This document shows positions 27,743 through 54,068 of a stretch of DNA of 64,000 bases, in pieces; position 1 is the stretch's first letter; each line of letters begins with the position of its first letter. The stretch comes from Nanobdellota archaeon (GTDB taxonomy: Archaea > Nanobdellota > Nanobdellia > Woesearchaeales > JAGWAF01): contig JBBSWF010000136.1 in assembly GCA_038046365.1 (NCBI GenBank), forward strand, positions 3,681 through 67,680, read 5' to 3'. Under the pieces are notes generated by a model. The model saw only the letters and a program-made list of their open reading frames with translations, had not been told where the DNA came from and searched no databases. The position numbers and the translations under genes were made by a program.

Positions 27743-27750
27743 TTTAAATA
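27743..27750 (+). promoter_or_regulatory. TATA-like box upstream of the 27782 gene / giant-gene operon
   Basis: TTTAAATA lies 32-39 nt upstream of the GTG at 27782. A second A/T box, CTTTTTATAAAAC, is at 27694-27706. Confidence 0.3.
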
Positions 27751-27781: not shown

Positions 27782-28786
27782 GTGGTAAGGTTGAATACCA
27801 AAAAGAGAGGACAGATAGCTATAGCTGCAGTGCTCGCGGCAGCCATCCTCGTCTTATTCCTCGTCGTGACACAGGTCATGAAAAAGCCCGTAGAGGTGAT
27901 GCCTGAAGCGACATCCGCGGCAACAATACGCGGGCTTGTCACAGCGTGCCTGCAGGAAGCGGCACAGGACGGCGCGTATCTCATCGGCAGGCAAGGAGGA
28001 TACCTTACGCTTGGCAATGACAGGTTCGAGATGGACGACATAAGCCTAGGCCCATTCGCGCACAGATCGAAGATCGTGGCACCAGGCATCGGACAGCTAG
28101 AGAACGACCTTGTAAGGCATATCGATTCGAAGCTGCCCCACTGCGTGATAGACGGACAAAGGGGGATCGGACAGAACCTCACATTCAAGACAACCAGATC
28201 CACAGTCCGCATCACACCCACACAGGTGGCGGTGACGACCGACTTCCCAGTGACTTCGACAGCAGGGGGACGGACAGAGACGGTGCACAAATTCTCATCA
28301 GTGATACCTGTACGGATAGGGATGCTGCGTAAGATAGCAGAGGACATACTTGCAGACAGAGTGTCTCATATAGGATTCTGGGACGTGACATTCCTCTCCG
28401 GATTGGCAGTGCCTGTGGAGATGCGAACGCTAAACGAGACATATGTGGTGTTCTCGCTGCTAGACAACGAGTCTTACACGCGGATCGAGGCGCCATATGT
28501 ATACAACGTCGCGCTGGATTCACCACCTAACGAGGCGCCGAGGATGATGCTGCCGGAGAAGTTCTCTTTGAAAGTCGGGCAGAGGTTCCAATACAAGGCG
28601 AGCGCAATCGACAATGATGAAGATCAGATCATATTCTTCGCGCCGAACCCATTGTTCAGGATGTCCTCGGAAGGAGTGATAGATTTCGTGCCGATGAATC
28701 CCGGAGTCACACCTGTGAAGATAGAGGCATATGATGACAAAGGAGCAGGATCCGCAAAGACAGTGCGGTTCGAGGTGTCGCCATGA
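27782..28786 (+). CDS. Protein with a class-III (type IV pilin-like) signal and a C-terminal cadherin/Ig-like domain
   Basis: The N-terminus is (M)VRLNTKKRGQIAIAAVLAAAILVLFLVV, that is, basic residues, RG/Q, then a hydrophobic helix. The C-terminus reads LPEKFSLKVGQRFQYKASAIDNDEDQIIFFAPNPLFRMSSEGVIDFVPMNPGVTPVKIEAYDDKGAGSAKTVRFEV, which is cadherin-like. Its stop overlaps the giant ORF start (ATGA). Confidence 0.6.
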   Translation: MVRLNTKKRGQIAIAAVLAAAILVLFLVVTQVMKKPVEVMPEATSAATIRGLVTACLQEAAQDGAYLIGRQGGYLTLGNDRFEMDDISLGPFAHRSKIVAPGIGQLENDLVRHIDSKLPHCVIDGQRGIGQNLTFKTTRSTVRITPTQVAVTTDFPVTSTAGGRTETVHKFSSVIPVRIGMLRKIAEDILADRVSHIGFWDVTFLSGLAVPVEMRTLNETYVVFSLLDNESYTRIEAPYVYNVALDSPPNEAPRMMLPEKFSLKVGQRFQYKASAIDNDEDQIIFFAPNPLFRMSSEGVIDFVPMNPGVTPVKIEAYDDKGAGSAKTVRFEVSP

Positions 28787-31700
28787 AGAGAAGGCATCTC
28801 GACCAGCTGATCGCACTGCTGATGATAATCCTGATAGTGGACACGCCGCTCGTGCAGGGAGCAGCGACCGCAAGCACACCTGCAGCGGGAGCAGGGGCGC
28901 TGGCGAAGACCCCCGAACAGGTGAAACAGGAACTGACCGATAAAAAAGAGGTGAAAGTCGAGAACAATATCGACAGTGTAAACAAAGCCCTAAAAGAAAC
29001 CGGAGAGATCCACAAAGACTCGAAGATAGACGTACCTCCAGAAGGGAACGTGGAGAGAACAAGCACAGGAGTCAGGATAACCGCAGGCACAGCTGAAGTC
29101 AACCTGGACAAAGGCGCAAAAGCCACGGTGAAGATGCAACAGACGCTGACTGGAAAACTGGTCGCGGGCGCAGTTGGGCTGGTCAAAGACTACAACCTCG
29201 CTCAAACATCAGCCGGACAGAAGGTCGCGGCGATCGCCGACCTAGTCGGATTCTCAGGCAGTTTCGAAGAAGGAATGACCGCAGCAGTGGGACTCCTTGG
29301 AGGACAGACACATACCACCGAAGTCGAATCAGAAACAAGGTCAGGAAAAAAGACCAAGAGAAAAATCAGCGGCGGAAAGACTACCGTAACACGGAAAGGA
29401 GATGTCAAAGTCAAGACAGATAAGGGGGAGCAGGAAACAGATATCACCGACTTCGAAGAGGGGACAGTCATTGGTGGAAACACGGCGATAGACAAGAAAA
29501 ACAATGCGATCGCATCATTCCAAGGACAAAATGTGGAACTCTCCACAGCTCCGGATGGATCATTGAGGATAAGCGGCAAAGGCGGCAAGGTCTCAGCATA
29601 TATCTCGGTCGAAGACAAGTATGGAGAAAAAGGGAGCTCCGGAACGCTCCGAGGAACGGCCACCACAACAGATGATACCGGTTGGATAACGATCGGGCAT
29701 AAGAACGGCGAGACCGTGATATCAGGGCAGAAAGCGACATTCGTTAGCACACCCAACGAAAAGGATATCGCGAACTACAAGCCATGGTCAGTGAGCGCAG
29801 ACGATTTCAGCGTAAAGATCGACAACCACAACCAGCTCTCCGAGGCCAGATTCAAGAACGGATACCTAGAACCTAACCCGGGAAGGAAGATAACTGATTC
29901 AGTCCCTCCCCTCAACAACGATTATGTCCAGTATTTCGCGAAGGGGACACGCGAACTGGCACTGAATCAGCAGTACTCCAAAGTCATCATCGATGAGAGC
30001 ATGTGGAAAGGCGCGGTGAAGGACGAATTCTTCAGGAACGGGCAGGGAGGGGAGAAGGACATCATCGAAGGAAAACAAAATGGATTCTTCGTGACAGCAA
30101 AAACAATCAAACCAGACCCTAATGAGCCTGGGAGCAAAGTGTCAAGGAGATACTTCATAGAGAACATAGATCCGAAATCAAAAGCAGGGTTCCTGGGATT
30201 CGTGACAAGCGAGGTCTACATCCCCGGAAAAGACGGCAAATCCATGATGGCAGATGGAAAACCCACCTCAATAAAATGGGGCGCCCTGATGGTCAAAGGG
30301 AAAGATGGAACCCTCAAACCCCACGTCGCGCTGATGGACGAGTCAATCAACACCGCGGCCCTGTTCAAGAAAAACCCTTCATCTATCGCACCGAATGTCG
30401 GAGTGGAGTTCGGGCCTTGGAAAGTCGACGCTGACAAGAGCGGGATAATGGCTGCCTCTGAGACAAAGCGCGGAAGGCAATATGGTTTATTCCTAGCTAA
30501 CGATGCGCTCACCGCGAAGACCACTGAATGGAGGGCGGAGTACACAAGAAGGGAGGATGCTGCTATCGCGGCCAAGCAAGCGGCTCTCAAAGCCCTAGAA
30601 GGAGGCGGCTTCACTTCTGCACAGATCAAAGAGGCGCAGCAGATCTTCGCCAAGTTGGGCGTGAAAAAGACGGCCGAAGACCTCAAGGTGATGTACTACC
30701 TCGACAAGAAAGACGCTAAGTCCGCAGCTGATATCGCCACTTCCCGGGACAACAGGAGGATGGTGGCAGATGCATTCTCACAGAGCACAGACCCCTCACA
30801 GCAGAAGACAGCGATGTCCATGTGGGGGGACCTGGCAAAGACCGCTGCGACAGAGAGAGAAGGAGAAGAGCTCCGGCGGAACATACTGAATCTCGACGGA
30901 AGACTGACCGGAAAGACCACTTTCGGGCAGGTGGACACACTCGCCGATGAGATCGCCCAAGGAAGGGCGAATTCAAAAGAGTATTACAAAAACGACCTCG
31001 AAGGATCGATAAGGCTAATGGACGCCAACCAGCGGCTGGCAGACGCAGTGAACTTCCAGGGCGTAGACACAGAAAAGAGACGCGAGGCAGACTACATCTC
31101 AGAGATACGTTCAGGAGGGGATGCGAAGGCAAAGACCTACGAGCTTGCGGTAGCATCGGATCGGATTGGATTAGAACAGGACGCCAAGGACAACTATGAC
31201 CTGGTCAGATCGCATCCCGATTATTATGGCGGGACCAATTCAGATATTGTCAAGAACGCCAATGCAAGATCTAAGGTAATCGGGGACCATCTCGAACAGG
31301 TCGTTGCGCGGCAACAAGCACAGCTCCCTGCAGAAGAGTTGAAGAAGCTCGGGAAAAGCGAGCTAGAAAAGATTGCGAAGACGCTCAGCGGAGGAAGCCA
31401 CTCAAACGAGATGAGAATCCTCGGAGAGTTGTACGAGCGGCGAGGACAGCATGATCTGGCTAAACAGACCTATGAATTAGGCCTGGTAAGCAGCGATCTT
31501 GGGGCGGGGAGCGCGGCTGAGAAGAGCCTTGGGCAAGGAAGGCAGACCGCGATGATCAACACCGCTGTAGAACAATTGCCCCGGCTCATCCAGAGCAACG
31601 ACTTCAAAGGAGCCAGGGCGCTGATCGAAGGCATCTCAAATGACCAGAAGCAAAAGATGGAAGAATACATCAACAATGCAGAGAACACCAAGAACACCCA

Positions 31701-46700: not shown

Positions 46701-49700
46701 AGAACCGGCGCTGATCCGAGGACTTAGTGCGTTAAAACCCGCCGCAGTAATAGAAAGCGCAGCCATACTTGGAGAGATGAGGTCAAAAGCCGCTGTGCCA
46801 CGCCTTGGACAAATAGCATCAGACCCGAAAAGATGGGCAAACACCAACGCGATCGAAGCGCTCGCAAAGATCGACACGCCAGAGGCGCAAGAACAGATAA
46901 TAAACGCAATGAACAACGCACAAGGACCAAAGTACAAAGCGAGAAGAATGTTTGATGCCACCCAGCTATCAAAGACCACTCCAAACCCGCAGACACACGA
47001 AAGAGCGCTAAACACACTGATCAAAGAATACGATGCAGATGCGAAGACGGATACAATGATCCAAACCGCTAAAATCATTAGAAACTACGTCAAAGAAGCT
47101 GAAAAACATGGACTCAAGAGTCCAAGCGCGATAAAATACCTGAAAGATAGACTACTGACAGAATCAGCCCAATCGTTCTATTGGGTCGACATCCACATTT
47201 CAGACCAAATCGCACTGATCATCACGCTTGGAGAAATCGGACCACAAGCAGAACCAGCGACTGAAAAGATACTGAGCTGGATAGAAGGGGCAATAGCAAG
47301 CGGAGGAGTATACTACCAAGATTTAGATAGTGCATACGAAGCCATCGGCGCAATAAAACCACAATCGAAACAAGACATAGACCGAATAAGAGATATGATC
47401 TTGAAAAACCAAAACGTATATGGAGATCGTAAGAGCACCGATCTGATTAAAGGCCTGATACCTGCACTTGGAAAAATTGGAAAAGCCGCAACACCAACAT
47501 TATTAAAATTACTAAGACCCCAGACACTGCCTGAGCATTCTGAGCTTGTAAAAAGATCTCTCGTAAGCATTGGCGCGGATGCCGTAGCCCAAATAATACC
47601 GGAGATAGCCACCGTTGAATCGGAGATAGCTAACCTGAAAAGACAGATTGGTAGATATCCTACAGACATATATCTGTCTGTACGCGCCTCTGACTTGCAG
47701 ACGGCAAAAATTTCTCTGATAGATGTGTTAGGACTCATGAAAAATCAGGCAAAGGGAGCAATAGACCTGCTAAAGACACAACTCGAACAGTCAAAGAAAT
47801 CTGGAAATGTCGATCTTAACAAACATATAATCCAAGCAATCGGCGAGATCGCACCAGAAGAAGCCATCGACTCGCTGATAGACACAATAAAAACCCAAGA
47901 GAAGCTGAAACAGCTAGCAATAGAACAAATTGGCAAGATCGGACAAAATGAACAGACCCCAAAAACCAGGGAAGCCGCAACAAAGGCCACACAACCACTC
48001 ATAGACGTCATCAAACAGTCACTTGATCGCTCCACAGAAGAAGGTCCTCCACCAGGCCGGGAATACACGATACCTGCAATAGAATCACTAGGGAAGATAT
48101 CCACTCAATCCGAGAAAAAACAACAGATAATCGAGTTCCTCACCAAAGCGCTCGACGAATCCAACAAAGCGCATAATACCGCGCTCGCGAAGGAAAACTA
48201 CGCGATACTTGAGATCCAAGCCACGGTAATCTCGGCGCTCTCGGAAGGAGGGAAGGACGCGAAAGCGGCGATACCAACCATAATCGACGCGATAGAGACC
48301 GCTTCAAGCAGATTTGAGACCGAGCCCCACTCGGGCAGCCTGGTGATAAATGCGGCCGCGTCAGCGATACCAAAGATAGGATCCGACTCCAGGACTGCCG
48401 CGGCCATCGAACGGGAGCTAGCCAAGAATGAGGACTGGAAGATACCCGCCAGCGAGATAGGCAGGGCACGATTAGAGATGGCGAGGCAGGCTAACTCGGA
48501 AGCCCTACGCAAGGCGCTAAGCGACCTGGCGCAGAAAGGCGACATAAACGCAGCTATGGCGATCCATGATGAGACCGCGCTCATGAACGCAGGAGACGAG
48601 GCGGTGAAAGCGCTGCTTGAGCGTGTGTACCAGATCAACAAAGACACCCGGGAACCACTGAAAGCGCAATGGGAGGTAGAGATGATCGCCAAGATAGGAA
48701 CAGAGCAGGCGGTCGCCTCACTCAAAGAACTCATTCGAGGAGACGACGGACTGGCAAACCTAGCTTTCTATTCAGCAAGAGTGCACGCGATACGAGATAT
48801 AGAACCAGCGGCACTAGCTTCGGTTTCAAGGAACCTAGGCGCAAAGGAAGACACCCCGCAAGCACAAGCAAGGAGCGGGGCGATAGTATACCTGGTTTTG
48901 ATGGGAAGCGAAGAAGCGGCAAAAGAACTGACTGACATGATGCTGCGCGAGGAAGGCGAATCGAGAGTCAAGACGCAGCTCAAGAATGCTGCAGACACTA
49001 TCAGAGAAGACGCCAGAAGGGAGAGTGACATCCGATCACAAGAGGAGCTTTCGAAAAAGAAGGCGCTGGCGCTCGCTGACCGTTTCTCAAAGAAAGATGG
49101 CATCACAGGATGCGCTGGCGGAGAATGCATAGAGACCGATGGAATAGCCGCGCAGATTCGGCAGATGACCGAAGCAGGGCACATATCAGAGCTTATGGAC
49201 TACCTCGAGAGCCTATCTGAGGAGATGGGCAACTTTGAAAGATCAGTCGGAATAAAACAAGAGATCAGACCGGAGATCGATGACACCCTCACAGACTTGG
49301 AAACTACCCGCGTCATGGTAGAGACTCACACGAAACAGCTGCAAAAAGAGTTCTCGCTGAGTGACGGACAACAAAAGAAGATGATGCTTATGTACCTGGC
49401 AAGTCCTGAGGATCTGAGGTCGCAACTAATATCATTTTGGCACGATATACTAAATCCGATGAATATAGTAACCGGTTACACATATATGCTAAGAGAGGAC
49501 AAAGAAACACAAAAATTACTTGAACGAGAGCTTACCATCCAAACTAACAAACTGAACGAGCTTGTAGAGATGGTCCGGTCAGGAAAGGAATGGGATTTCA
49601 GCAAACAAAGTCGACCTGGATTACTACTACTATATGCTCACCAAATTCAGGCGCTTAATGAGATATTAACAAGGAACTATTTAGCAATTCAACCATACCG

Positions 49701-51894
49701 AAAAGAATTGAGTGGAAAACAACAGAACACGCTAGATTCTATCTTAGATGGAAACCTAAAAACCAAAAATGCCATAGTCTACTTAACAGAGTTCGAGCCC
49801 AAAGAAATAAAAGAGCAAATCAGCGAATCGGCCAGAGAGTTCGGCCTCGACACCTTCGAGATCGGCGAAAACGTCAAAGATACAGAGACACAGGCCTCAA
49901 TAACCAAATCCCTGCAAAACTTCGCAGCCAACTCAAAGAGGGCAATGGACACATACAACCAGAACGCCAGACTAAAAGGCGAACCAACACGCACACTTAA
50001 AAACAGCGTAAAGGCAGATTACGACCCCTCAACTAAAGAAATAGAAGTCACCTACCAGGACAACGCAGGAGGAATCGACATCGAGACAGTCAGGAAAAAC
50101 CTTGAAAAAAAATGGAAAACGATATCAGAAGTCAGACAAAAATTAAGGGATATTGGAATATTTGCTGCGGACTCCCCGCAAGACCAATTGACAGATTATG
50201 AAGTCATCCACAGCATACTGCTAAAAGGCGTCACCACAAAAGTAGAAGAAGAAGGCGAGCATGGAATAGGACTCTTTGGAGTAGTCGAAGAAATGAAACA
50301 TAGCGGAGGCTGGACAACAAAAATAGACTGGAAAACCAAGGAAACCGCTGCAAAATACAAGCCGCCAGTAAGCATAGAGCAGGTCAAAGACCCGGACGGA
50401 AACGTAATCGGAACAAAATTCACACTGAGAATGAAATCGACAGATACACCGCGATTCCTGCTCGAATACCCACGAACGATGATAGCCAAGATGAGAGCGA
50501 TAGAACCTGAATCAATAGTCCAGGAAGCGTTAGTCGAGAGCGCGATGCAGACTGAAGCGGGCAATCCCATGACGCCGATGGAGGTCGCGACAGCAAAACT
50601 ACAGGCGAGGCTTGAATCACTTGGGCTGCAAGGCAAGAAGCTGGAGGACGCCTTGTCGAAGAAGCTGGAAGAAGTGCAGAGGGTAATGCCGGAGCAAGCA
50701 GAGCCTGAGAGCGCGCGATTCAAGCCGATAGAGAAGACCGAATTGATCAAAACAAATCTGGACAAGTATCTAACCAAGGCGACAGGCAGGACATTAGAGA
50801 CATTACAAGAGCTGATCCAGACCGATGAACAAGGGAACGTGTTCTTCATCGACGCTGATGGAAAACCGCATATAGAGATAACACAGTACGTGGGAGACCT
50901 AATATCTAACCTGCTCGACAGGATCGCCTTGAAGATGTTGATAGGCGAAAAAGACGAAGCGAAAGCTTATGCCCTGAAACTCGCAGACATCGTCGACGCT
51001 ATGATAAGCCAGGTCGAGACCGGATCGGCGATAGGCATACTAAAAGATCATGTAGAGGCAGCGCAGAAGACAGAAACATACAACCTGATGAAAGAAGCAT
51101 GGTATGCTAACAAAGACAAGCTTCTGGCAGAGCAGACCGAAGACACATTAAAACCCATACAGGACGCCTTACTCAAGTACAAGAAAGAGGTGTCAAACAC
51201 CTACACATACTCCGAAAGCTACCCTGCAGCGGCCGACGCGCTGGCGAAAAGACTCGCTGAAATGCAGACGATCCCACCGGCACAGGCAGAGACATCGGTC
51301 GCGATAGCGCCTACTGTCAGTGAAAAGGTCCCGAAGACCAATAGCAGGGGATACATACCGATGCGCGACGTGATCGCGAAAGGAGGGGCAGAGCAGCACA
51401 AGATGACCCTGCAGGTCAGCGGGAACCGCCTGCTAGTCGACGGAAAACCAGTCCAGGGGATAACCATCAAAGGGGACATGGCCACGATAACAGGCGAGCA
51501 GTACACAAGCTGGGAGTCGGCGATGGCATTCGCCAGAAATGAAGCGATACCGCCAGGGGTGGATGGATTCACCTACGTCGCAGAACCAGGAAGGATGGCT
51601 GGGAATACTCAGGATGAGATAAAGAAGACCCTCGGAGCAGCGAGCACAGAGGCGGTGATAAAAATCAGGTTCATCGCCCCCATTGAGAAGATATGGGTGA
51701 AATCAGAGAAGGCTAAGCCGTTCAAACTAGCGGTGGAAGAGGGAATAGACACTTACCTCATATCCGATATGGACGTAGTGGACTTGAGAGAAAAACCTCA
51801 GGATCAAGAAGCAATAGCACGATTAGGAGCGGCCACTTCAGGGTTTATGATAGATTATGACTTCGAGGTCGGAATACCTGAAGAAGTCCTGTAA
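28783..51894 (+). CDS. Giant 7,703-aa multi-pass, multi-domain protein of unknown function
   Basis: Single uninterrupted ORF of 23,112 nt. It has an N-terminal signal/anchor, four or more hydrophobic clusters, long coiled-coil-like tracts, and the recognisable modules listed as sub-features below. Confidence 0.85.
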   Translation: MKRRHLDQLIALLMIILIVDTPLVQGAATASTPAAGAGALAKTPEQVKQELTDKKEVKVENNIDSVNKALKETGEIHKDSKIDVPPEGNVERTSTGVRITAGTAEVNLDKGAKATVKMQQTLTGKLVAGAVGLVKDYNLAQTSAGQKVAAIADLVGFSGSFEEGMTAAVGLLGGQTHTTEVESETRSGKKTKRKISGGKTTVTRKGDVKVKTDKGEQETDITDFEEGTVIGGNTAIDKKNNAIASFQGQNVELSTAPDGSLRISGKGGKVSAYISVEDKYGEKGSSGTLRGTATTTDDTGWITIGHKNGETVISGQKATFVSTPNEKDIANYKPWSVSADDFSVKIDNHNQLSEARFKNGYLEPNPGRKITDSVPPLNNDYVQYFAKGTRELALNQQYSKVIIDESMWKGAVKDEFFRNGQGGEKDIIEGKQNGFFVTAKTIKPDPNEPGSKVSRRYFIENIDPKSKAGFLGFVTSEVYIPGKDGKSMMADGKPTSIKWGALMVKGKDGTLKPHVALMDESINTAALFKKNPSSIAPNVGVEFGPWKVDADKSGIMAASETKRGRQYGLFLANDALTAKTTEWRAEYTRREDAAIAAKQAALKALEGGGFTSAQIKEAQQIFAKLGVKKTAEDLKVMYYLDKKDAKSAADIATSRDNRRMVADAFSQSTDPSQQKTAMSMWGDLAKTAATEREGEELRRNILNLDGRLTGKTTFGQVDTLADEIAQGRANSKEYYKNDLEGSIRLMDANQRLADAVNFQGVDTEKRREADYISEIRSGGDAKAKTYELAVASDRIGLEQDAKDNYDLVRSHPDYYGGTNSDIVKNANARSKVIGDHLEQVVARQQAQLPAEELKKLGKSELEKIAKTLSGGSHSNEMRILGELYERRGQHDLAKQTYELGLVSSDLGAGSAAEKSLGQGRQTAMINTAVEQLPRLIQSNDFKGARALIEGISNDQKQKMEEYINNAENTKNTQDLIKNGNFAEAEATAKKITDAKTRETLLFRTYALSNDLTKLTESTSSFKDAGARDAAYDYLATTYEQRGLRASAEGLIDKIAGISPEEKALRKAMMYAGTDVSKKEHFLKQAEAILTREGAQNKEEYNMNMARYSALIGRNKDVVDSWYAAAIGDLQKAKQGATPEIIARLTEQEKSFTKEVQTLRAMDTNTRISEYTKKFSELGSQRETLRNQEGYLWNSEEIRNKVNTVNQKTAEAQKEYAAYFSTLSSAYIGLERWRIENGQYPDTPQIKQMKLDALKAAEESQRIMNKWASIPEITYRPEEIALNELTARGRELTTGIFLSNEIDGINKVQNDLTKALLEKQYGDRYAQYKLAENGGDIQKTLAAVRDDKTKFDQQLKNPYMDDIGRNNIRTFQTIVGNSLGTLEVATKPDLKVDSQTFSYLSAMRGNEINTVSRFKELNQIPLTDIERPMVDQQIYQLKASQDALSAKMYERLDTYTPTVRASIDKMTATTSVAAGVVKNNEITSFDKGLWGTGIRRFTDNLLQGSIGQAFESLADVSLASTYWSLGSDYDSTYSTYNKAFTDTIQSSKAARQLNEIAQMYPGVDIYDSKNLGKLTPEQQWIVQESIFKTKPQSIEEAYGGKSDSTYYTSGEAWKGATNLGNLGKVAASMAVAAVTTGGLGWLAGAIGLTKNVGTTTTAAANFLTNAFAFTVADEAINQIATGRYDASKFADTEFGTKLATNLVTFGAMHALGSATKPLSSYISGEGKAAIEAASKATTQPGGKAATAVIEAATKPISLPRSILAKSTEIGLTSAGMGAVFGTAEYVQRRLNGEILTAEDILTGYGSAALNGLIFTSLHQAATTAVTTAGTKVSSYLTEKALSSSAENVIKTATQFATKIGLDLRDPNKVADTLARAKLQQEGISAPTQEQVALAKSSIPKETINRATNPTASPVERAEPLRQIGRYLARTIAESQITEAEVLQKAKTLDNRGVGLEKMPETERAGLIERARQGLVEERIRNDLSRAKGNDALESQVRKGLTDAIEQEAAKPGEAILPWSDITDYQMAEAQYRKLTGQAELSSIDQKMFTLRGALPEEAFKKIIESSDYQGWIARQKTIEMDILSARQTLGELRTTAEALKGPEATSTKKPPLQDSTAYKDARVALEPTRLGTERMVLTNELSEARTSATDAQRELERLGSLADKPIENEAAFKEQAQSRGMTSEEARQEATRQATQRLEEANTKKTQLEAQLKENGDNILTANLEKAILQSPDSAVPVAAEARATSILAEITRVNQEKQRLSQTETSAKERARQLGEYERALNEALLKAHEQLNRAKAAVDSESPGVLDLLGRGGAYLTSRENLLKTKNELETAQARKIFSEDLIKRVEDAKKSRQIPNVEEIARKLAQESTDSRYARFANDAAEGIAKKAMTAEQTIESARSAAAERLDEAETRYKLAVKQFAEGQKQLLFDDNALAAQARMADAQMNAESTKAMLEKAKTAMSMAETNSIIQAMDLAMLIGDPQIKGILENINGISMLETGRSEAETVKAKDLRREEINRIVNEKMTGIEAAPGSAEHQAKLETEIKAAEAATAGKLTEYSQQAKQKVQEALQMMKAEAAQSTQKIRTADAKKTLEDIVKAEASKGNHAQIADTVRRETGLSNQDLVKLMGSERGKAPVIEERILEDREYSAQEKDSLERRVNEIEMKRKYSPLTIEETLELYRADKQARLLRLIDAKQQEVSDLVSSQGRQEGETATILEARISKARNELADLRTKKEASIKTSNEKLNLLQTLELRGWEYMTNKMGAGGRLANFDPFQVEAESIAYAQHLMGASTAMAGGKSSFVGPGILETSRSTLGMKGVFLTTQGLAFAQNQIMAEKFAMLGRKVYFLDGLDKLADRLTKTQEADFVVVGDQTIGFLLTKLWDPNTPVNERLAAKGIIGELTTNRHIFADEADSVWKPKNRYISGGKQTSPPVEKLAIASSVNTIFERMGLYVLDKNGNEAYRAKIVDGSEQTSIKTIASATSLPESEIIRFLENRNSIIREGFSDRSLSEAGSKLNAEQARKIYDAFTALKEKTKFKQEFYDELATRVATETGLTTGQVKEIFRNPNKANWNDAKVAKAIEYLEAINEFGDFMGKYKGHDYFYLESEQRIIPGKSGAPQKDQRYSNAYTALAAEYVGAKAYGQKANTEAVKVSGKAVEASLPQFYTMAERGGSFVTSMTGDPGAAEATMSLTLGMKWSASDVITKKLFGTDTKAGDWLERGLLRVTGVGANRADALDWIVSNAKTLERSGGVENKNKVYAIVSLLKGLENREISEKLTKDPRFEHITTVIESGTAELGTWTIRTKSGEVWSEKKISEAEFAEYKRRFANGEMKNTLIILGEGASRGTDIPMLRDIPWIAIGETESIKSEAQQMITRAGRVPGEEPTIHLIVSGGAKITAAELRRSMESAESYANRANAVEGAISALDGIGNDFFNQYSVRNMMGADSTAFRVNEALRDTFKGTAGKNLEITPGLESIKDSIKKKIDSAVQFWKEIQELRENPDKINDPKYAKIKNALKETLSDEISKGGDTPQVYRDALKRYFDSLSAGEEARAKALAVNPGELKTRTGDVTAGKPLFGATDYVEWADTFSKTFSEKDLPAVRSGKTAEAAIVMPAAEARLRQKKIALDEIIPLAERAEQSADAQRAAREEITRIMPEREAPAVQIAPTITSTWSSSYLSPALTRAAGYASAIGLYGVGTTLSNAASAASAATTETSATLLTALSHASTDPATLGVAILTAATAIAWTPLRNAATAFLKPTAETIAEGLESPNEALRQAAQNKLTKMGNVGARAAAKKLASKNSQTREQAYELLMQFGQTANGAEQQIMDAVTDPTETIDNKQRGIQALQSMKTTQSINTLKRIVDGTNKEAAYMAKLALEVMGIDETPVKADFPVEANKEQTAARPENQIAAGESVTIRGSTRTIERAKERLEKENIEIKIGQRTISIIKDENDGQIKILSEGKSLTLNPGDSITAGRDPQNTIDISDSQVSRNHLRINYDKESDLITITDLQSSNGSTITSKIETKALTTEEKTKTLAPEEKSVIGLYTRVSDAIYSPVEQMPKISQDEIIIDSTFGDPKKAYDKLKQTGLLPDIKIVAEGSEYLISPPFLLKGVRPAHIVFVKTPGNYKYHMQVAYRSNSASTYRLLPWIARYPIKGKETDWYVKGIMIPQGSDRPTSADENMLNYPFVITHEMNKRLLREKSIQAEPPLPVITSLSPYGGTFLPQGIETLKGLSKEVRTETFDIKNDPPIDIGTQSQPEIDFVIRDAEIAFGRNAMQLFIRSKSGQKIYRFVQAEYLVQDAATGKKRFITKTSLAGIEEIGNGVNDYGLRHKQIAQSNPILNIGGIEYDSQLQEFLYEHPVRGARQERVLEQLPDGTTKPTPYTAVPNELEPLIQQADQFFKKYGRRKEPEGPLSSISISQEESPAESRPTAELYEQISTAVQQPTKEPKDDAIEALDKAARDALKQGDEAAQNAIRTLTRINTRMSANTIIKLLEDKISDATIIKILTEETSGLKPYALSEEMERVKNLGVLPKLTSESADTQKEAVRFLGVNGNGLDLPRLTELKTTTQDPELSRIIKESIDSIRGRMVELSLQSLPAGIRTRISMKDDSTTDMIIGKYDLTKNQIIGQVGGERKILNSNEIKKIQIEGEDYMILGERRTFKTKNKYVTLPIHPDIDIVPELKEFGKVRAPSAKPTEPERAPARLIEGVISAASNIPVIGIAAGIFGLPGLAEAGQAMSTAAQAAASAIQVVPDSPGMMMATLAGGLLFAAGRRIYNRYFAAPVVELPTGPPITITIHGIDGRERSVTFEQFTAKNPIDINPIIDALSSEDTWPEAARLITDAFQEEGHETGIIRGANGEIIVHLKETLPAIETANALEKQTGIKTNCGTGSTNCAGHETKDEIELLIGKMGSGDPEEVKIVSDQLTRLGAVAVPSLILGAKNPNILIRESSLVVLGNIGGNPAISTLLDAINDKDDKVRLTAALALMKIDPSVIEGMGGNFLKVTLTLIDILARTPEENKQKILTRVTSLGEPVVPYFIVALSARNPDYAFEAYHSLIAIGKPAVSPLKSLFLNKNSGIRDTAVLALGEIGAQSEADESQRSGPPYTIRLASEIRVFLEDNLDDFDPGEVRGAVLYTLGQLKLNTWTVIDQMLNGLTRSDPYVRIMAARGLGELGNKHPTILNALIRYMDEGTFMFEGSINDRNAAVKSIGKLGVDILPDIIGKYLKASDEKSRHNLFLVMIAIKNLNPDKKERIFEVIRQSGLPQNFKELWNELSANDYALINEYSELISSQGTSRTGLENAIDTGLPVKRSSRSDGHYKDDDFSKQKDLLSLTTLIVLSELIHYLHTGQGKSDLGQIISRDLLDWGSEAGGLVVYKNGKLSFERYEPRCRGDNCRYIISEKLDADSPHALFSWHNHATKLLGNAEIAGPSGWHSAQDVSGGGDIGTAEQENKDGVVITYLGENKFNVNYYTYDGIVINLGDYSWDTSKVPLLTKEKIGELEKVYSENVVRRSDVIDNELERLLITTKNDCDSGAIPGAACSAMQTALETTNYDDKVNKIIMAQSALATPSIVAPDISKPPTDAEKSLNQKFGTLINKAQRPLDESVLEETLAARDYTTPQTMPEETAAPEVTTQPVTELLTGLPGLVEAGQITSSTMQTAPDSPLAVMATVTAGLAITAGRSIYNYFSPIGDTAGSRTARIGMIAAGALLAAPATAWAGQMLMSSPDMAISIAQTSTNPPALAASMLMGALGTLIGTVFGGYKIPPSPIRHVNKRIGPGDRYWNPTASESNVDTLRAQNDQGELLAAIIKTGEIGELVTAYASVDETGQITALTARKEELPPADIHLSIVWDGQLERYTGVEALTALTSADQSKIVDDIATAAAQANTMMEKKGGASILALVPTIEAKERSIATAIAAGAVETARSVKINFAVEGFSGPQIVRDSSRRYLISQWPSSEPALIRGLSALKPAAVIESAAILGEMRSKAAVPRLGQIASDPKRWANTNAIEALAKIDTPEAQEQIINAMNNAQGPKYKARRMFDATQLSKTTPNPQTHERALNTLIKEYDADAKTDTMIQTAKIIRNYVKEAEKHGLKSPSAIKYLKDRLLTESAQSFYWVDIHISDQIALIITLGEIGPQAEPATEKILSWIEGAIASGGVYYQDLDSAYEAIGAIKPQSKQDIDRIRDMILKNQNVYGDRKSTDLIKGLIPALGKIGKAATPTLLKLLRPQTLPEHSELVKRSLVSIGADAVAQIIPEIATVESEIANLKRQIGRYPTDIYLSVRASDLQTAKISLIDVLGLMKNQAKGAIDLLKTQLEQSKKSGNVDLNKHIIQAIGEIAPEEAIDSLIDTIKTQEKLKQLAIEQIGKIGQNEQTPKTREAATKATQPLIDVIKQSLDRSTEEGPPPGREYTIPAIESLGKISTQSEKKQQIIEFLTKALDESNKAHNTALAKENYAILEIQATVISALSEGGKDAKAAIPTIIDAIETASSRFETEPHSGSLVINAAASAIPKIGSDSRTAAAIERELAKNEDWKIPASEIGRARLEMARQANSEALRKALSDLAQKGDINAAMAIHDETALMNAGDEAVKALLERVYQINKDTREPLKAQWEVEMIAKIGTEQAVASLKELIRGDDGLANLAFYSARVHAIRDIEPAALASVSRNLGAKEDTPQAQARSGAIVYLVLMGSEEAAKELTDMMLREEGESRVKTQLKNAADTIREDARRESDIRSQEELSKKKALALADRFSKKDGITGCAGGECIETDGIAAQIRQMTEAGHISELMDYLESLSEEMGNFERSVGIKQEIRPEIDDTLTDLETTRVMVETHTKQLQKEFSLSDGQQKKMMLMYLASPEDLRSQLISFWHDILNPMNIVTGYTYMLREDKETQKLLERELTIQTNKLNELVEMVRSGKEWDFSKQSRPGLLLLYAHQIQALNEILTRNYLAIQPYRKELSGKQQNTLDSILDGNLKTKNAIVYLTEFEPKEIKEQISESAREFGLDTFEIGENVKDTETQASITKSLQNFAANSKRAMDTYNQNARLKGEPTRTLKNSVKADYDPSTKEIEVTYQDNAGGIDIETVRKNLEKKWKTISEVRQKLRDIGIFAADSPQDQLTDYEVIHSILLKGVTTKVEEEGEHGIGLFGVVEEMKHSGGWTTKIDWKTKETAAKYKPPVSIEQVKDPDGNVIGTKFTLRMKSTDTPRFLLEYPRTMIAKMRAIEPESIVQEALVESAMQTEAGNPMTPMEVATAKLQARLESLGLQGKKLEDALSKKLEEVQRVMPEQAEPESARFKPIEKTELIKTNLDKYLTKATGRTLETLQELIQTDEQGNVFFIDADGKPHIEITQYVGDLISNLLDRIALKMLIGEKDEAKAYALKLADIVDAMISQVETGSAIGILKDHVEAAQKTETYNLMKEAWYANKDKLLAEQTEDTLKPIQDALLKYKKEVSNTYTYSESYPAAADALAKRLAEMQTIPPAQAETSVAIAPTVSEKVPKTNSRGYIPMRDVIAKGGAEQHKMTLQVSGNRLLVDGKPVQGITIKGDMATITGEQYTSWESAMAFARNEAIPPGVDGFTYVAEPGRMAGNTQDEIKKTLGAASTEAVIKIRFIAPIEKIWVKSEKAKPFKLAVEEGIDTYLISDMDVVDLREKPQDQEAIARLGAATSGFMIDYDFEVGIPEEVL
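33649..34250 (+). other. Giant ORF: transmembrane cluster 1 (about 5 hydrophobic helices)
   Basis: KVAASMAVAAVTTGGLGWLAGAIGL, AAANFLTNAFAFTVA, LATNLVTFGAMHALG, IGLTSAGMGAVFGTA and GSAALNGLIFTSL. Confidence 0.5.
37100..39000 (+). other. Giant ORF: SecA-like DEAD motor ATPase (NBD1, insertion, NBD2)
   Basis: AMAGGKSS (Walker A, K2804), IFADEADSVWKPKNRYISGG (DEAD at aa 2916-2919), SMTGDPGAAEATMSL, GEGASRGTDIPM and ESIKSEAQQMITRAGRVPGE. These are collinear with the SecA motifs [26 protein letters not shown], GMTGTAxTEAxEF, NMAGRGTDI and [18 protein letters not shown]. Confidence 0.65.
39830..40055 (+). other. Giant ORF: hydrophobic cluster 2
   Basis: YLSPALTRAAGYASAIGLYGVGTTL ... LGVAILTAATAIAWTPL. 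Confidence 0.4.
40093..40455 (+). other. Giant ORF: HEAT-like repeat block 1
   Basis: SPNEALRQAAQNKLTKMGNVGARAAAKKLASKNSQTREQAYELLMQFG... follows a PBS-lyase/HEAT-like periodicity. Confidence 0.45.
40699..40875 (+). other. Giant ORF: FHA (forkhead-associated, phosphothreonine-binding) domain
   Basis: LTLNPGDSITAGRDPQNTIDISDSQVSRNHLRINYDKESDLITITDLQSSNGSTI carries the G-R ... S-x-x-H ... N-G pattern (G3985, R3986, S4000, H4003). Confidence 0.7.
43000..43161 (+). repeat. Giant ORF: internal repeat copy 1 (hydrophobic hairpin motif)
   Basis: GLPGLAEAGQAMSTAAQAAASAIQVVPDSPGMMMATLAGGLLFAAGRRIYNRYF (aa 4740-4793). Confidence 0.6.
43550..44600 (+). other. Giant ORF: HEAT-like repeat block 2
   Basis: GSGDPEEVKIVSDQLTRLGAVAVPSLILGAKNPNILIRESSLVVLGNIGGNPAISTLLDAINDKDDKVRLTAALALMKIDP, then NSGIRDTAVLALGEIG and SDPYVRIMAARGLGELG. 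Confidence 0.65.
44920..45150 (+). other. Giant ORF: possible JAB/MPN (JAMM) metalloprotease-like site
   Basis: E5384 (WGSEAGGLVVY), H5430-N-H5432 (FSWHNHATK) and S5450-A-Q-D5453 (WHSAQD). The H-to-S spacing is longer than the classic HxHx7Sx2D. Confidence 0.35.
45754..45891 (+). repeat. Giant ORF: internal repeat copy 2 (hydrophobic hairpin motif), followed by further hydrophobic helices to about 46130
   Basis: GLPGLVEAGQITSSTMQTAPDSPLAVMATVTAGLAITAGRSIYNYF (aa 5658-5703). Similarity is also visible at the nucleotide level: GGACT(G/A)CCTGGACT..GA.GCAGGACA. Confidence 0.6.
46690..48900 (+). other. Giant ORF: HEAT/ARM-like repeat block 3 (about 2 kb)
   Basis: Recurrent units include AILGEMRSKAAVPRLGQIASD, AIEALAKIDTPEAQEQII, LIPALGKIGKAATPTLLKLL, IIQAIGEIAPEEAIDSLIDTI, IPAIESLGKIS, VISALSEGGKDAKAAIPTIIDAI and MIAKIGTEQAVASLKELI. 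Confidence 0.55.
49411..50440 (+). other. Giant ORF: histidine-kinase module (HisKA-like H-box plus HATPase_c)
   Basis: The H-box is LISFWHDILNPMNIVTGY (H6887). The N-box-like motif is NFAANSKRAMD, G1 is YQDNAGGIDIE and G2 is EHGIGLFGVVEE. The module ends ...GTKFTLRMKS. Confidence 0.7.
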
Positions 51895-53902: not shown

Positions 53903-53997
53903 AATTTCTTAGATCAGCCATTACCCCAACCACCTCGATTCGAAGTCCACAGAAGGACTGAGGGCCTTCTGGTCCCGCTCGCACTTCGTGCTTCGCG

Positions 53998-54017
53998 GAA
54001 TCTCGGCGGGAGCGTTG
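53998..54017 (+). repeat. 20-bp direct repeat, copy 2 (orphan duplicate of the tRNA-Arg 3' end)
   Basis: GAATCTCGGCGGGAGCGTTG, identical to 53883-53902 and 95 nt downstream of it. Confidence 0.85.
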
Positions 54018-54068
54018 TATATCTTCTAAGGGGGTTCACGACGAACCCCGAGGAGAAAAATAGAGGGA

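Follow-up and report, generated by a model that had tools for sequence, protein, structure and literature searches.

The window analysed here, a stretch of 64,000 nucleotides, contains an open reading frame of 7,703 codons. The locus thus raises the question of whether so long a frame is a single gene and, if it is, what kind of protein it encodes.

A single gene of 7,703 codons

In the ORF list the giant ORF occupies 28783..51894 of the plus strand (23,112 nt; 7,703 codons plus stop) and begins with ATG. The closest in-frame stop on the 5′ side is at 28735, so that 28783 is the earliest possible start, and the ATG shares bases with the TGA of the upstream ORF 27782..28786 (CCATGAAG). From the region's own base composition a stop-codon share of 4.6% is expected, which gives P ~1e-159 for 7,703 codons without a stop; the other two frames contain 560 and 275 stops across the same stretch. 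A chance origin of the ORF is excluded. The only simple repeat is a single 57-nt tandem repeat, and the ORF is therefore not repeat-built. Synonymous codon use follows that of eight housekeeping genes in the window (r = 0.80), and the GC content is 50.1% (51.6% in the comparison housekeeping genes). The protein is deposited as NCBI MEK6961198.1 from a Nanoarchaeota MAG, where it is annotated as 'FHA domain-containing protein', and the identical 7,703-aa product is recorded in NCBI, Logan and ENA from two contigs. A literature search on the accessions found no publication. The preliminary description of the locus had proposed a single uninterrupted gene with its ATG over the upstream stop, which the ORF list and the database records confirm; its segment boundaries differ from ours by no more than a few tens of residues. 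The archaeal neighbours (ATP-dependent DNA ligase, FtsZ, seryl-tRNA synthetase, DUF4013 and AsnC/Lrp regulators) and the organism name at NCBI (Nanoarchaeota) place the gene in an archaeal context.

The frame is not intact in every assembly. ENA ERZ1300416 NODE_40 (locus L002), a contig from another assembly, is colinear with window positions 28795-61905 at 99.9% identity, which makes a chimeric join in the window unlikely. This contig lacks one nucleotide each at 37748 and 38775, and a G-to-T change at 38227 converts codon 3149 from GGA to TGA; all three differences lie inside the motor module described below and break the gene into 2994 + 94 + 182 + 4365 aa. A 92.5-kb contig carries the same two protein fragments of 2,994 and 4,365 aa, and a third, long-read-style assembly (L003) shares the 37748 deletion only. 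The intact frame could on these grounds be a product of assembly or polishing, with the true locus split or pseudogenised in the motor module, but we consider this very improbable. A 23-kb open frame is beyond what chance or polishing would produce, the exact full-length product comes from three sources and two contigs, and the gene parts on either side of the break region are open in every assembly. L002 is indel-dense elsewhere (eight within the 200 bp of 53965-54158 and 13 within the 400 bp of 57006-57412). In L003, 25 kb contain 31 indels and the DNA ligase gene is broken, as is typical of long-read error. The frame-breaking differences are most likely assembly errors, and at most they would represent a strain variant rather than an artefact of the window. 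We conclude that 28783..51894 is one real gene, carried by a small-genome DPANN archaeon.

Organization of the locus and of the giant protein

The features of the locus are as follows.

27743..27750, plus strand: TATA-like box TTTAAATA, 32 nt 5′ of the GTG of the upstream gene (read from the sequence)
27782..28786, plus strand: upstream gene of 334 aa, its TGA overlapping the ATG of the giant gene (ORF list, translation)
28783..28866, plus strand: Sec-type signal peptide, aa 1-28, with KRRH n-region, 11-residue h-region LIALLMIILIV and c-region ending in VQG before AAT
28867..33627, plus strand: N-terminal region, aa 29-1615, Gly/Thr/Lys-rich and then helical, with zero cysteine
33628..34272, plus strand: hydrophobic cluster 1, aa 1616-1830, Ala/Gly/Thr-rich, best TM candidate aa 1629-1647
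34273..36549, plus strand: coiled-coil-like helical stretch, aa 1831-2589, Ala/Glu/Lys/Gln-rich
36550..39717, plus strand: predicted SecA-like two-RecA ATPase module, aa 2590-3645 (HMMER, BLASTP, alignment, AF2, Foldseek, hhalign)
39829..40056, plus strand: hydrophobic cluster 2, aa 3683-3758, best candidate aa 3739-3757
40093..40314, plus strand: HEAT block 1, aa 3771-3844 (Pfam HEAT_2, 29.2 bits, cut-off 27.7)
40690..40884, plus strand: FHA domain, aa ~3970-4034 (Pfam, NCBIfam, PDB)
40900..42927, plus strand: orphan region, aa 4040-4715, no matches in libraries or relatives
42994..43164, plus strand: hydrophobic hairpin repeat copy 1, aa 4738-4794, GLPGLAEAGQ...PDSP...AGRRIYNRYF
43522..44652, plus strand: HEAT block 2, aa ~4914-5290 (Pfam HEAT_2, 56 and 36.8 bits)
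44920..45177, plus strand: supposed JAMM site, aa 5380-5465, SEAGG...HNH...SAQD
45748..46122, plus strand: hairpin copy 2 (aa 5656-5704) and hydrophobic helices aa 5717-5735 and 5757-5775
46660..48882, plus strand: HEAT array, aa ~5960-6700+ (Pfam HEAT_2, 37.6, 32.1 and 21.6 bits in three sub-segments)
49420..50457, plus strand: histidine-kinase-like module, aa 6880-7225 (boxes read from the sequence; weak profile and fold matches)
50458..51891, plus strand: C-terminal tail, aa 7226-7703, no match

The product of the upstream gene begins with KKRG followed by QIAIAAVLAAAILVLFLVV, which we take to resemble an archaeal class III (type IV pilin-like) signal, and has no match in Pfam or NCBIfam. 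The giant gene is probably co-transcribed with this small pilin-like gene, and the TATA-like box is the likely promoter of the two-gene unit.

The signal peptide of the giant protein, assigned by reading the sequence, has the strongest hydropathy in the whole protein (2.17). What had been noted as an N-terminal signal or anchor looks like a signal peptide, and we infer that it is cleaved. A comparable N-terminus was found in most relatives and cluster neighbours checked; relative P0024 has none. The region that follows (aa 29-1615) is presumably exported. It has weak TPR-like matches at about aa 880-1070 (TPR_14, E = 4e-4, below the Pfam cut-off), no Pfam match at aa 28-600 and no homologue detected among family members and cluster neighbours.

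About six internal hydrophobic segments were found, all marginal (Kyte-Doolittle values 1.5-1.8, crude Hessa sums +0.9 to +4.4 kcal/mol), the helix at aa 5757-5775 being the most hydrophobic of them. The earlier term 'multi-pass' therefore holds in that hydrophobic segments are present, but beyond the N-terminus these are Ala/Gly/Thr-rich and only marginally hydrophobic. The two hairpin copies share 52% identity (E = 6e-11, internal BLASTP). As a family motif the hairpin was rejected: it is absent from the family proteins compared and unique to the giant protein. In the coiled-coil-like stretch A, E, K, Q, L and R jointly make up 51-58% of residues, and its Pfam matches are spurious only. The order of signal, G/A-rich hydrophobic stretch, coiled coil and motor recurs in relatives P0020, P0030, P0025 and P0029, where the G/A-rich stretches N-terminal to the coiled coil and motor were recognized by eye.

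Cysteine is nearly absent from the giant protein, at eight of 7,703 residues compared with 1.33% in 35 other ORFs (13-fold depletion, P = 6e-34). This scarcity runs along the whole chain, including the ~6,000 aa presumed to be cytoplasmic; in the same window, a different protein with a signal peptide contains 2.9% Cys.

The motor module has Walker A AGGKS (G2803, K2804), Walker B DEAD (D2916, E2917), motif V GEGASRGTD (G3353) and motif VI QxxxRxxR (Q3379, R3383, R3386), and all of these numbered residues are invariant in 8/8 aligned family members (alignment A1). An AF2 model calculated from the eight-sequence family alignment has two α/β domains (mean pLDDT 63; RecA1 80-92). In a Foldseek search of this model against the PDB, ranks 1-25 were all SecA/SecA2 (E = 1.7e-9 to 5e-5), with structural alignments of ~900-1000 columns, TM scores of 0.33-0.48 and about 11-13% identity. 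The order of Walker A, DEAD and motifs V and VI is the same as in SecA/SecA2 (PDB entries 1tf2, 5eul, 6itc, 4uaq and 6sxh). SecA has a large insertion, the preprotein-crosslinking domain (PPXD), after its 'ISGG' strand, and the motor has one of ~230 aa at the equivalent place (pLDDT < 50). In the model the second RecA domain is followed by a long helix (45 residues) and a helical domain (pLDDT 75-92), which may correspond to the helical scaffold and wing domains that come after NBD2 in SecA. By hhalign, Walker A, Walker B and the subsequent 'ISGG' are in register with a Pfam-verified SecA_DEAD domain.

Sequence libraries miss the motor. Pfam SecA_DEAD (PF07517) and P-loop_SecA (PF21090) gave no match to the isolated motor segment even at E <= 10, in a search that finds SecA_DEAD in relative P0025 at E = 9e-26. 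NCBIfam gave no SecA match to the module, and PDB sequence searches (phmmer with the motor segment, both protein halves and hmmsearch with the family profile) gave no SecA. A family-profile match to phosphoglycerate dehydrogenase in the PDB was rejected as a spurious Rossmann-like stretch. The motor thus differs from SecA in having no sequence-level match to Pfam SecA_DEAD, P-loop_SecA or PDB SecA, in its position mid-chain in a 7,703-aa protein of an archaeal host, and in its longer insertion, which is without a confident fold. The SecA-like ATPase placed at 37100-39000 by the preliminary description is nevertheless correct, as the first 25 fold-search ranks and the invariant motifs indicate. 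The module is best described as a SecA-like ATPase with two RecA domains, highly divergent and with its catalytic motifs complete; the likeness to SecA depends on an AF2 model of medium confidence (mean pLDDT 63).

The FHA domain is secure: the Pfam FHA profile (PF00498) scores 37 bits over aa 3983-4029 (cut-off 20.7, E = 4.7e-9), NCBIfam FhaB/FipA matches at E = 1.8e-6 and the PDB matches are to ArnA and Rv0020c-type FHA domains. By sequence it is like those of ArnA (Sulfolobus, PDB entry 5a8i) and mycobacterial FhaB/FipA; unlike FHA/PP2C/kinase modules, it is an island of ~65 aa in a giant chain. The three HEAT blocks noted earlier are also present, five sub-blocks (29-56 bits) being above the Pfam cut-off. 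PDB matches of alphaRep proteins to block 2 reach E = 4.5e-19, and Pfam HEAT matches the whole C-terminal part in six stretches (E = 1.3e-38). The ~700 aa described as having no recognizable motif correspond to the orphan region, which is indeed matchless. Glycoside hydrolase, dockerin and peptidase domains were not found in the giant protein.

A HisKA/HATPase_c module had been proposed near the C-terminus. Its boxes occur in the right order (H, SFWHDILNPM; N, NFAANSKRA; G1, DNAGGI; G2, GHGIGL). Pfam HisKA matches aa 6887-6931 at E = 6e-4 with 20.2 bits, under the cut-off of 26.9 bits, and NCBIfam DpiB matches the G2-box region only (E = 4e-4). HATPase_c has no Pfam match in the giant protein, and a phmmer search of the region against the PDB gave nothing. 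A single-sequence AF2 model has pLDDT 41 (long paired helices at ~50-60); most of the top 30 Foldseek hits to it are the CheA P4 ATP-binding domain with E of at least 7.5e-3, a result that is only suggestive. The boxes, the sub-threshold HisKA match, DpiB and the CheA P4 fold make a histidine-kinase module probable, although no Pfam cut-off was passed. The possible JAMM site of the preliminary description is unsupported: HNH and SAQD are separated by 17 residues, not ~7, and no JAB/MPN match was found in Pfam, NCBIfam or the PDB. The sole match in this stretch is a weak TRAP/MtrB similarity (per-domain E = 0.17).

The motor family and described giant proteins

An exhaustive HMMER search found 11 relatives of the motor module among 1.84 billion (1.84e9) representatives. 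Matches of the module to ten clusters have E values of 3e-37 to 1e-7, BLASTP of aa 2589-3612 against P0030 gave E = 1e-51, and the similarity extends over the full module (about 700-1000 aa). Full-length members have 3,184-7,844 aa and the larger cluster members 3,932-5,859 aa. The named organisms are Ca. Woesearchaeota (DPANN) and Ca. Woesebacteria and Patescibacteria (CPR), and the proteins are giant. A three-sequence alignment retrieved four related loci from GTDB and one from JGI; with the giant protein alone, no relatives were found in genome or metagenome contigs. A word-indexed homology search returned 8,000 candidates for aa 2700-3700, none of them significant, and found nothing for the JAMM and histidine-kinase regions. 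The negatives of this search are weak, as it missed the protein's own cluster representative. Cluster representative P0002 does not cover the C-terminal part of the giant protein. Judged by these similarities, the motor module defines a very rare family of giant proteins, so far of DPANN Woesearchaeota/Nanoarchaeota and CPR bacteria only.

The HEAT arrays, the FHA domain and the histidine-kinase-like module around the motor are lineage-specific. In the relatives the module is instead combined with SpoIIE/PP2C and Pkinase domains, and the motor genes adjoin FHA(/HEAT) giant genes. The giant protein and the scanned neighbours gave no match to Ser/Thr kinase or PP2C. In two relatives, one from a Woesearchaeota MAG and the other from a different NCBI assembly, the motor and FHA(/HEAT) parts are separate adjacent giant genes, and the single-polypeptide build is therefore not conserved. 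Homologues split into ordinary genes had been foreseen as an objection to the architecture; splitting was found in these two relatives, in genes that are themselves giant. Outside the motor, comparison of the giant protein with family members and cluster neighbours (BLASTP, tblastn, phmmer --max) gave only generic FHA similarity, so that reading the protein as a 'fusion' rests on domain types and not on orthology.

The preliminary description could assign the architecture to no described family. Comparable proteins are, however, on record: in Omnitrophota and some Actinobacteria, a divergent SecA_DEAD occurs together with HEAT_2 and HATPase_c in giant proteins that have signal peptides or TM segments (bioRxiv 10.1101/2023.11.21.568195; 10.64898/2026.06.07.730766), and these are the closest described kind. 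The Omnitrophota giants and the protein described here agree in several respects. Both are encoded by very long single ORFs of ultra-small organisms that depend on a host, both have a signal peptide and/or TM segments, and in both a divergent SecA-like ATPase lies close to membrane segments. It shares one chain with HEAT_2 and other signalling domains, among them a HATPase_c-type part (only probable here), and the bulk of the sequence is unannotatable short of structure prediction. The Omnitrophota type (West-Roberts 2023) is bacterial, often over 10,000-100,000 aa, and has a Pfam-detectable SecA_DEAD and many carbohydrate-active/adhesion domains, whereas the giant protein is archaeal and shorter than 10,000 aa, with few and marginal internal hydrophobic segments and a Pfam-invisible motor; the longest protein recovered from all the representatives searched has 7,844 aa. 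Relative P0025, of CPR type, carries both SecA module types and bridges the Omnitrophota-type and DPANN/CPR groups.

Giant proteins also occur in Nanohaloarchaeota, where the SPEARE proteins are reportedly defined by serine protease, adhesion and restriction-endonuclease domains. SPEARE proteins belong to DPANN episymbionts and have a presumed host-contact role (Hamm et al., 2019, PMC6642349), as have other large DPANN/CPR surface proteins (Castelle et al., 2021, PMC8204110; Vampirococcus, PMC8080830). A murein transglycosylase domain is the defining feature of the large proteins of Woesearchaeota/Pacearchaeota. None of these four domains was found in the giant protein with Pfam and NCBIfam, and for SPEARE, the Woesearchaeota/Pacearchaeota proteins and Vampirococcus no SecA-like motor is reported.

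Possible function

Our best explanation, to which we give a probability of about 0.45, is an envelope or host-contact machine with a cytoplasmic SecA-like motor and an exported N-terminal part. After export, the first ~1,600 residues would point towards the surroundings or the host, with hydrophobic cluster 1 (Ala/Gly-rich) as the membrane span. On the cytoplasmic face would lie the coiled coil, motor and signalling scaffold, and there the paired hydrophobic hairpins would re-tether the chain to the membrane. The motor would spend ATP on pushing polypeptide through a membrane channel, its substrate being partner proteins or that part of the giant protein itself which is exported. Through the FHA, HEAT and kinase-like parts, motor activity would be tied to phosphorylation-dependent signalling. 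Relative P0024, an ortholog with motor and PP2C, has no N-terminal hydrophobic segment and lies 50 nt after a 5,970-aa gene, which fits a cytoplasmic motor with an exported partner. The Omnitrophota giants, with TM anchors beside SecA-like domains, follow the same logic. A host-interaction role, as the preliminary description had supposed, may likewise be inferred for the giant protein.

Two observations fit the cytoplasmic motor poorly. In P0022 the motor directly follows a signal-peptide-like N-terminus, with no hydrophobic segment between, and in the N-terminal stretches examined of the 6,862- and 5,609-aa neighbours such an N-terminus is followed by FHA, as though the 'cytoplasmic-type' domains were themselves exported; and cysteine depletion in the supposedly cytoplasmic 6,000 aa is unexplained by an inside/outside model. 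Both would be accommodated by an exported effector or translocator, a somewhat unlikely alternative, in which the whole chain leaves unfolded via Sec and the hairpins insert into the host membrane. The site of action of the SecA-like, FHA, HEAT and kinase-like parts would then be the host cytoplasm or its boundary, where they might, for instance, thread polypeptides of the host out to the symbiont or rewire its signalling pathways. Uniform and extreme cysteine avoidance fits a chain kept translocation-competent; the giant protein starts with a canonical Sec-type N-terminus, as do most members of the family and most cluster neighbours; and the family is confined to two episymbiotic lineages, DPANN and CPR. 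Weak as they are, the internal hydrophobic segments are no obvious stop-transfer anchors, and weakly hydrophobic segments are typical of secreted membrane-inserting proteins. On the other side, no secretion or injection apparatus or host has been identified, P0024 is without a signal peptide and that of the giant protein was assigned by eye. We also know of no precedent for the export of a 7.7-kaa multi-enzyme chain and its refolding in a foreign cytoplasm.

The two-RecA module could also be a generic SF2 translocase or helicase, and the protein a membrane-tethered scaffold for DNA/RNA uptake or processing. DPANN archaea depend on imported nucleotides, Pfam SecA_DEAD is blind to the giant protein, P0034 has a weak ResIII match (E = 0.0016), and RIG-I/MDA5, DinG, Hel308, FANCM and Brr2 appear below SecA/SecA2 in the fold search (E = 1e-4 to 4e-3). 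We nevertheless think this improbable, because the best 25 folds are near full-length and 4-5 orders of magnitude in E ahead of these helicases, the insertion lies exactly at the PPXD position with the long helix after RecA2, and hhalign gives the register of a genuine SecA_DEAD domain. Pfam searches of the whole giant protein revealed no domain for nucleic-acid binding.

A bolder proposal, which we regard as unlikely, is that the Pfam-invisible SecA-like module marks an undescribed cross-domain DPANN/CPR apparatus, an exported motor with phospho-signalling at or inside the host membrane that would draw macromolecules from the host or bring it under control. The signal peptide, the near-total avoidance of cysteine and the weakly hydrophobic hairpins, taken as insertion elements, would speak for its export. 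So read, the apparatus would be one polypeptide here and a giant-gene cluster of ~50 kb in the Woesearchaeota relatives.

Standard annotation as an 'FHA domain-containing protein' overlooks the SecA-like form of the giant protein altogether. The cost of a 23-kb gene (or of the ~50-kb cluster in relatives) and the extreme cysteine avoidance argue for strong selection. With 11 matches among 1.84 billion representatives, the named ones in DPANN and CPR only, the family suggests transfer between domains or a common machine specific to this lifestyle, and the theme of giant proteins with a divergent SecA, described for Omnitrophota, reaches archaea. Archaea are known to lack SecA, and a SecA-like motor in a giant DPANN envelope protein would be a concrete candidate for powering their post-translational export.

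The giant gene and its surroundings

The giant gene (28783-51894, + strand) consists of 7,703 codons in one open frame with an ATG start, and the only stop in its translation is the terminal one. The TGA of the upstream ORF (27782..28786) overlaps this ATG, with the overlap sequence CCATGAAG. The expected frequency of stops was computed from the base composition of the region itself (A 34%, T 16%): 4.6% of random codons should be stops, and the probability of 7,703 stop-free codons is ~1e-159. The other two frames across the gene contain 560 and 275 stops. The gene is not built from repeats, a 57-nt tandem repeat being the only one found in a repeat search, and its synonymous codon use correlates with that of eight housekeeping genes of the window (r = 0.80). 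An identical protein has the public accession MEK6961198.1 ('MAG: FHA domain-containing protein [Nanoarchaeota archaeon]'), and records of the exact protein, from two contigs, exist in NCBI, Logan and ENA. The single uninterrupted ORF and its overlap with the upstream stop, both proposed in the preliminary description, were confirmed by the ORF list, the translation and the stop statistics; the giant gene is real.

In a second assembly (L002; ENA ERZ1300416 NODE_40) the same locus follows window 28795-61905 colinearly with 99.9% identity, and a chimeric join is thereby ruled out. Inside the giant gene, L002 differs by 1-nt deletions at 37748 and 38775 and by G->T at 38227, which changes codon 3149 from GGA to TGA; gene calls of 2994 + 94 + 182 + 4365 aa result. 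The three positions were compared with L002 8954-9980 and with position 17735 of L003 (ERZ1286166), a long-read-style third assembly that has only the 37748 deletion in common with L002. The flanking 2,990 and 4,365 codons are open in the disrupted assemblies. L003 carries 31 indels in 25 kb and its DNA ligase gene is also broken, and L002 contains dense indel patches elsewhere (53965-54158 and 57006-57412). The differences are most likely assembly errors, possibly originating from shared long reads. The three disruptive differences all fall in a single 1-kb stretch inside the motor module, and may instead represent a real strain variant with an inactivated motor. That the giant ORF itself is an artefact or a pseudogene is very improbable.

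The surroundings are those of an ordinary archaeal chromosome, and include genes for an ATP-dependent DNA ligase, FtsZ, seryl-tRNA synthetase, an ABC transporter, dCTP deaminase and regulators of the AsnC/Lrp and HTH_10 types. Other features of the neighbourhood are listed below.

Features in the neighbourhood of the giant gene (window coordinates, strand, feature)
8893-11169, +, 758-aa ORF with signal peptide MKTTAIIMIMLLTLSIAASA and 22 Cys (2.9%)
26899-27555, -, DUF4013 multi-pass membrane protein, 218 aa
27743-27750, +, promoter-like box TTTAAATA, 32 nt upstream of the 334-aa gene
27782-28786, +, 334-aa gene, stop overlapping the giant-gene ATG
51838-52281, -, Macro-domain gene, 147 aa, 4.8% Cys, convergent with the giant gene and overlapping its final 57 nt
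52962-53609, -, DUF4013 multi-pass membrane protein, 215 aa
54069-54803, -, 244-aa ORF, ~2 kb downstream of the giant gene

The two DUF4013 proteins are paralogous and are encoded on the opposite strand, one on either side of the giant gene. Neither Pfam nor NCBIfam gives a match for the 334-aa protein, whose N-terminus KKRG/QIAIAAVLAAAILVLFLVV resembles a class III (type IV pilin-like) signal of archaea and whose C-terminal part is beta-rich. The coding strand of the giant gene (28001-54000) has an AT skew of 0.30-0.46 in most sub-windows and 0.15 in one, compared with about 0-0.2 in most sub-windows elsewhere; the skew arises from Ala/Glu/Lys/Thr-rich codons and accounts for the numerous long ORFs on the antisense strand, which reach 422 aa. 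The coding strand of the 758-aa ORF, which has no family match, is also strongly A-over-T-skewed, and this ORF looks like another orphan secreted protein. The 244-aa ORF begins ...RILVVDEHEW..., contains YDVLLTSLNL and bears a faint likeness to a receiver domain; Pfam and NCBIfam give no support, and a match to EspB_PPE is spurious. It would be of interest if the kinase-like module of the giant protein requires a partner.

Motor, scaffold and signalling modules

The motor module, a SecA-like ATPase with two RecA domains (aa ~2590-3645), had no match in any sequence library searched (Pfam, NCBIfam, PDB). When 1.84 billion representative proteins were searched exhaustively by HMMER with aa 2740-3460 as the query, just 11 reached E <= 1e-3, and seven of these were below 1e-10. 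Fragments aside, the proteins of this motor family are 3,184-7,844 aa long (larger cluster members 3,932-5,859 aa), and BLASTP aligned nothing but aa about 2590-3645 between them and the giant protein. In an alignment of eight sequences the catalytic columns, and no others, are invariant, and the SecA-like motif set of the giant protein is intact.

Sequence features of the giant protein
G2803, K2804: Walker A (AGGKS/T), invariant in the eight-sequence alignment
D2916, E2917: Walker B (DEAD), invariant
G3353: motif V (GEGxxxGT[DN]), invariant
Q3379, R3383, R3386: motif VI, invariant
aa 3771-3841: HEAT_2, above cut-off (segment-wise Pfam)
about aa 4949-5005: HEAT_2, above cut-off
about aa 5134-5205: HEAT_2, above cut-off
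aa 5976-6049: HEAT_2, above cut-off
aa 6337-6403: HEAT_2, above cut-off
aa 4901/4908: Cys pair, loop NCGTGSTNC
aa 5405/5410: Cys pair, loop RCRGDNC
aa 5546/5556: Cys pair, loop DCDSGAIPGAAC
aa 6777/6782: Cys pair, loop GCAGGEC

An AlphaFold2 model calculated on the same alignment has a mean pLDDT of 63 (RecA1 80-92, C-terminal helical part 75-92). The nearest structure is that of SecA/SecA2: in a Foldseek search of the PDB, ranks 1-25 are SecA or SecA2 (E 1.7e-9 to 5e-5, ~900-1000 aligned columns). SF2 helicases (RIG-I/MDA5, DinG, Hel308 and others) appear only from E 1e-4 onward, and a role in moving nucleic acid, instead of protein, is improbable for the module. A ~230-aa insertion, modelled at low quality, directly follows the 'ISGG' strand, at the position equivalent to the preprotein-crosslinking domain of SecA, and after the second RecA domain comes a helix of 45 residues. 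Alignment of the family profile with the SecA_DEAD domain at the C-terminus of the relative P0025 using hhalign placed Walker A, Walker B and the next strand in register, with weak statistics (E 8e-4, probability 24%). The SecA-like ATPase named in the preliminary description thus holds as to fold and motifs, but not as to formal membership of the SecA sequence family.

Whole-chain Pfam/NCBIfam searches identified HEAT_2 (E 1.3e-38, six stretches), HEAT, HEAT_PBS, FHA and a weak HisKA. The sixth HEAT_2 stretch fell below the Pfam cut-off in the segment-wise scan; the FHA domain (Pfam E 4.7e-9) spans aa 3983-4029. A PDB sequence search with the giant protein returned only alphaRep/PBS-HEAT proteins and FHA domains (e.g. 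Sulfolobus ArnA), in agreement with the earlier assignment of both domains. TPR matches at aa 880-1070 were all sub-threshold, and segment-wise scans gave no match for aa 28-600, 1600-1900, 4040-4715 and 4590-4920 or for the 480-aa tail. The suggested JAMM site was not upheld: Pfam, NCBIfam and the PDB gave no match, and HNH and SAQD are not canonically spaced. This stretch (aa ~5405-5465, window 45000-45180) shows weak similarity only to the tryptophan RNA-binding attenuation protein TRAP/MtrB (RG..R..SEKLD....F..H..A.K..G.A.I; per-domain E 0.17). A tandem-TRAP construct inflates the full-sequence E of 4e-4, and the similarity is probably due to chance.

A histidine-kinase-like module is probable. 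HisKA matched the H-box SFWHDILNPM (E 6e-4) at 20.2 bits, below the cut-off of 26.9, and NCBIfam DpiB matched the G2-box region (E 4e-4). The N, G1 and G2 boxes can be recognised in their correct order, and the best Foldseek matches of a low-confidence single-sequence model (pLDDT 41) are mainly CheA ATP-binding domains (E 7.5e-3 or weaker). The proposed HisKA/HATPase_c assignment is therefore retained in this weaker form.

Relatives and their gene clusters

The motor family is rare and, among named members, restricted to DPANN archaea and CPR bacteria. P0022, P0030 and, via its contig, P0020 belong to Candidatus Woesearchaeota, P0023/P0031 to Candidatus Woesebacteria and P0027 to Patescibacteria; no more than five further loci came from scans of GTDB species representatives and JGI metagenomes. 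The motor module is accompanied by other phospho-signalling domains in relatives: SpoIIE/PP2C and a protein kinase in P0022, and SpoIIE in P0024. By eye, the order signal peptide, Gly/Ala-rich hydrophobic stretch, long coiled coil, motor recurs in P0020, P0030, P0025 and P0029. P0025 (7,844 aa, 701.7-kb contig) has the family module at aa 1441-2176 and a Pfam-detectable SecA_DEAD (E 9e-26) with P-loop_SecA at its C-terminus, and so is a giant protein with two SecA-like motors; its N-terminus and its similarity to P0029 suggest that it is of CPR type.

In two relatives the motor gene lies inside a cluster of giant genes.

Gene order in the clusters (sizes in aa)
L004 (Woesearchaeota MAG, GCA_016215315.1): 5210, 3184 (motor), 1267, 369 (minus strand), 6862 (FHA, HEAT_2)
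L006 (GCA_053533315.1): 5970, 2482 (motor), 2149, three small genes, 5609 (FHA-like by eye)

About 50 kb (L004 1-25555 and L006 1-27449) is given to this conserved row, with sizes of 5.2-6.0, 2.5-3.2, 1.3-2.1 and 5.6-6.9 kaa. Most of its genes have a signal-peptide-like start, P0024 lacking one and the N-termini of the two upstream genes lying outside the comparison. The first two giant genes of L004 overlap by start and stop, and its 6,862-aa protein has an HExxH motif (VLHESGHAL) after the FHA domain. The giant protein unites in one chain what these genomes spread over adjacent giant genes. This comparison is one of domain types and not of demonstrated orthologues, because outside the motor and a generic FHA domain nothing is alignable between the giant protein and its relatives or their cluster neighbours. 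The single-polypeptide build is found in the window; in L004 and L006 the motor and FHA(/HEAT) parts are on separate giant genes.

Membrane features and proposed mode of action

The giant protein starts like a Sec signal peptide (KRRH, the 11-residue h-region LIALLMIILIV, ...VQG/AAT), and comparable N-termini were found in most family and cluster proteins checked, P0024 being the exception. The internal hydrophobic clusters are Ala/Gly/Thr-rich, with Kyte-Doolittle values of 1.5-1.8 and crude Hessa sums of +0.9 to +4.4 kcal/mol. The N-terminal part of the claimed signal-anchored, multi-pass topology is thus retained, but 'multi-pass' is not established, since the internal segments score marginally. 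Two clusters contain a 50-residue hairpin module (aa 4738-4794 and 5656-5704; 52% identity, E 6e-11) that is unique to the giant protein, being absent from the motor-family proteins compared.

Only eight of the 7,703 residues are Cys (0.10%), compared with 1.33% in 35 other ORFs of the window (binomial P = 6e-34) and 2.9% in a signal-peptide protein elsewhere in it. All eight are in four close pairs with Gly/Ser/Thr-rich loops, three of the pairs in inter-module linkers. Similar loops are present in P0022 (DCEGGGSVHC), P0024 (DCGATASVGC), P0030 (CKGEGC) and the 6,862-aa protein of L004 (DCQPTRSAGC). Possible roles for them are as metal knuckles, as disulfide staples or as sites of processing.

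We tentatively favour a model, with a probability of roughly 0.45, in which an exported N-terminus and a membrane-spanning first cluster are joined to a cytoplasmic polypeptide motor under phospho-dependent control. The first ~1,600 residues would be exported and hydrophobic cluster 1 would cross the membrane, keeping the coiled coil, motor and signalling scaffold in the cytoplasm, where ATP is available; the paired hairpins would re-tether these parts to the membrane. The motor would drive polypeptide through a membrane channel, with the FHA, HEAT and kinase-like modules controlling it. P0024, with no signal peptide and a position after the 5,970-aa gene, is consistent with this model. The main competing reading, which is less probable, has the entire chain exported to act at or inside the host; it is favoured by the signal peptide directly before the motor in P0022 and before FHA in cluster neighbours, by the uniform avoidance of cysteine and by the weakness of the hydrophobic segments.

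The closest described proteins are the giant signal-peptide/TM proteins of Omnitrophota and some Actinobacteria, with divergent SecA_DEAD, HEAT_2 and HATPase_c (10.1101/2023.11.21.568195; 10.64898/2026.06.07.730766). The model with a cytoplasmic motor agrees with the reading of the Omnitrophota proteins, in which SecA-like domains adjoin TM anchors. Neither paper reports such proteins for DPANN or CPR, papers on DPANN and CPR that mention large proteins describe other architectures, and no description of the motor family was found in the literature searched. The SecA-like module is so divergent that standard annotation gives only 'FHA domain-containing'; the giant protein is rated as an archaeal, sub-10-kaa version of the Omnitrophota-type theme.
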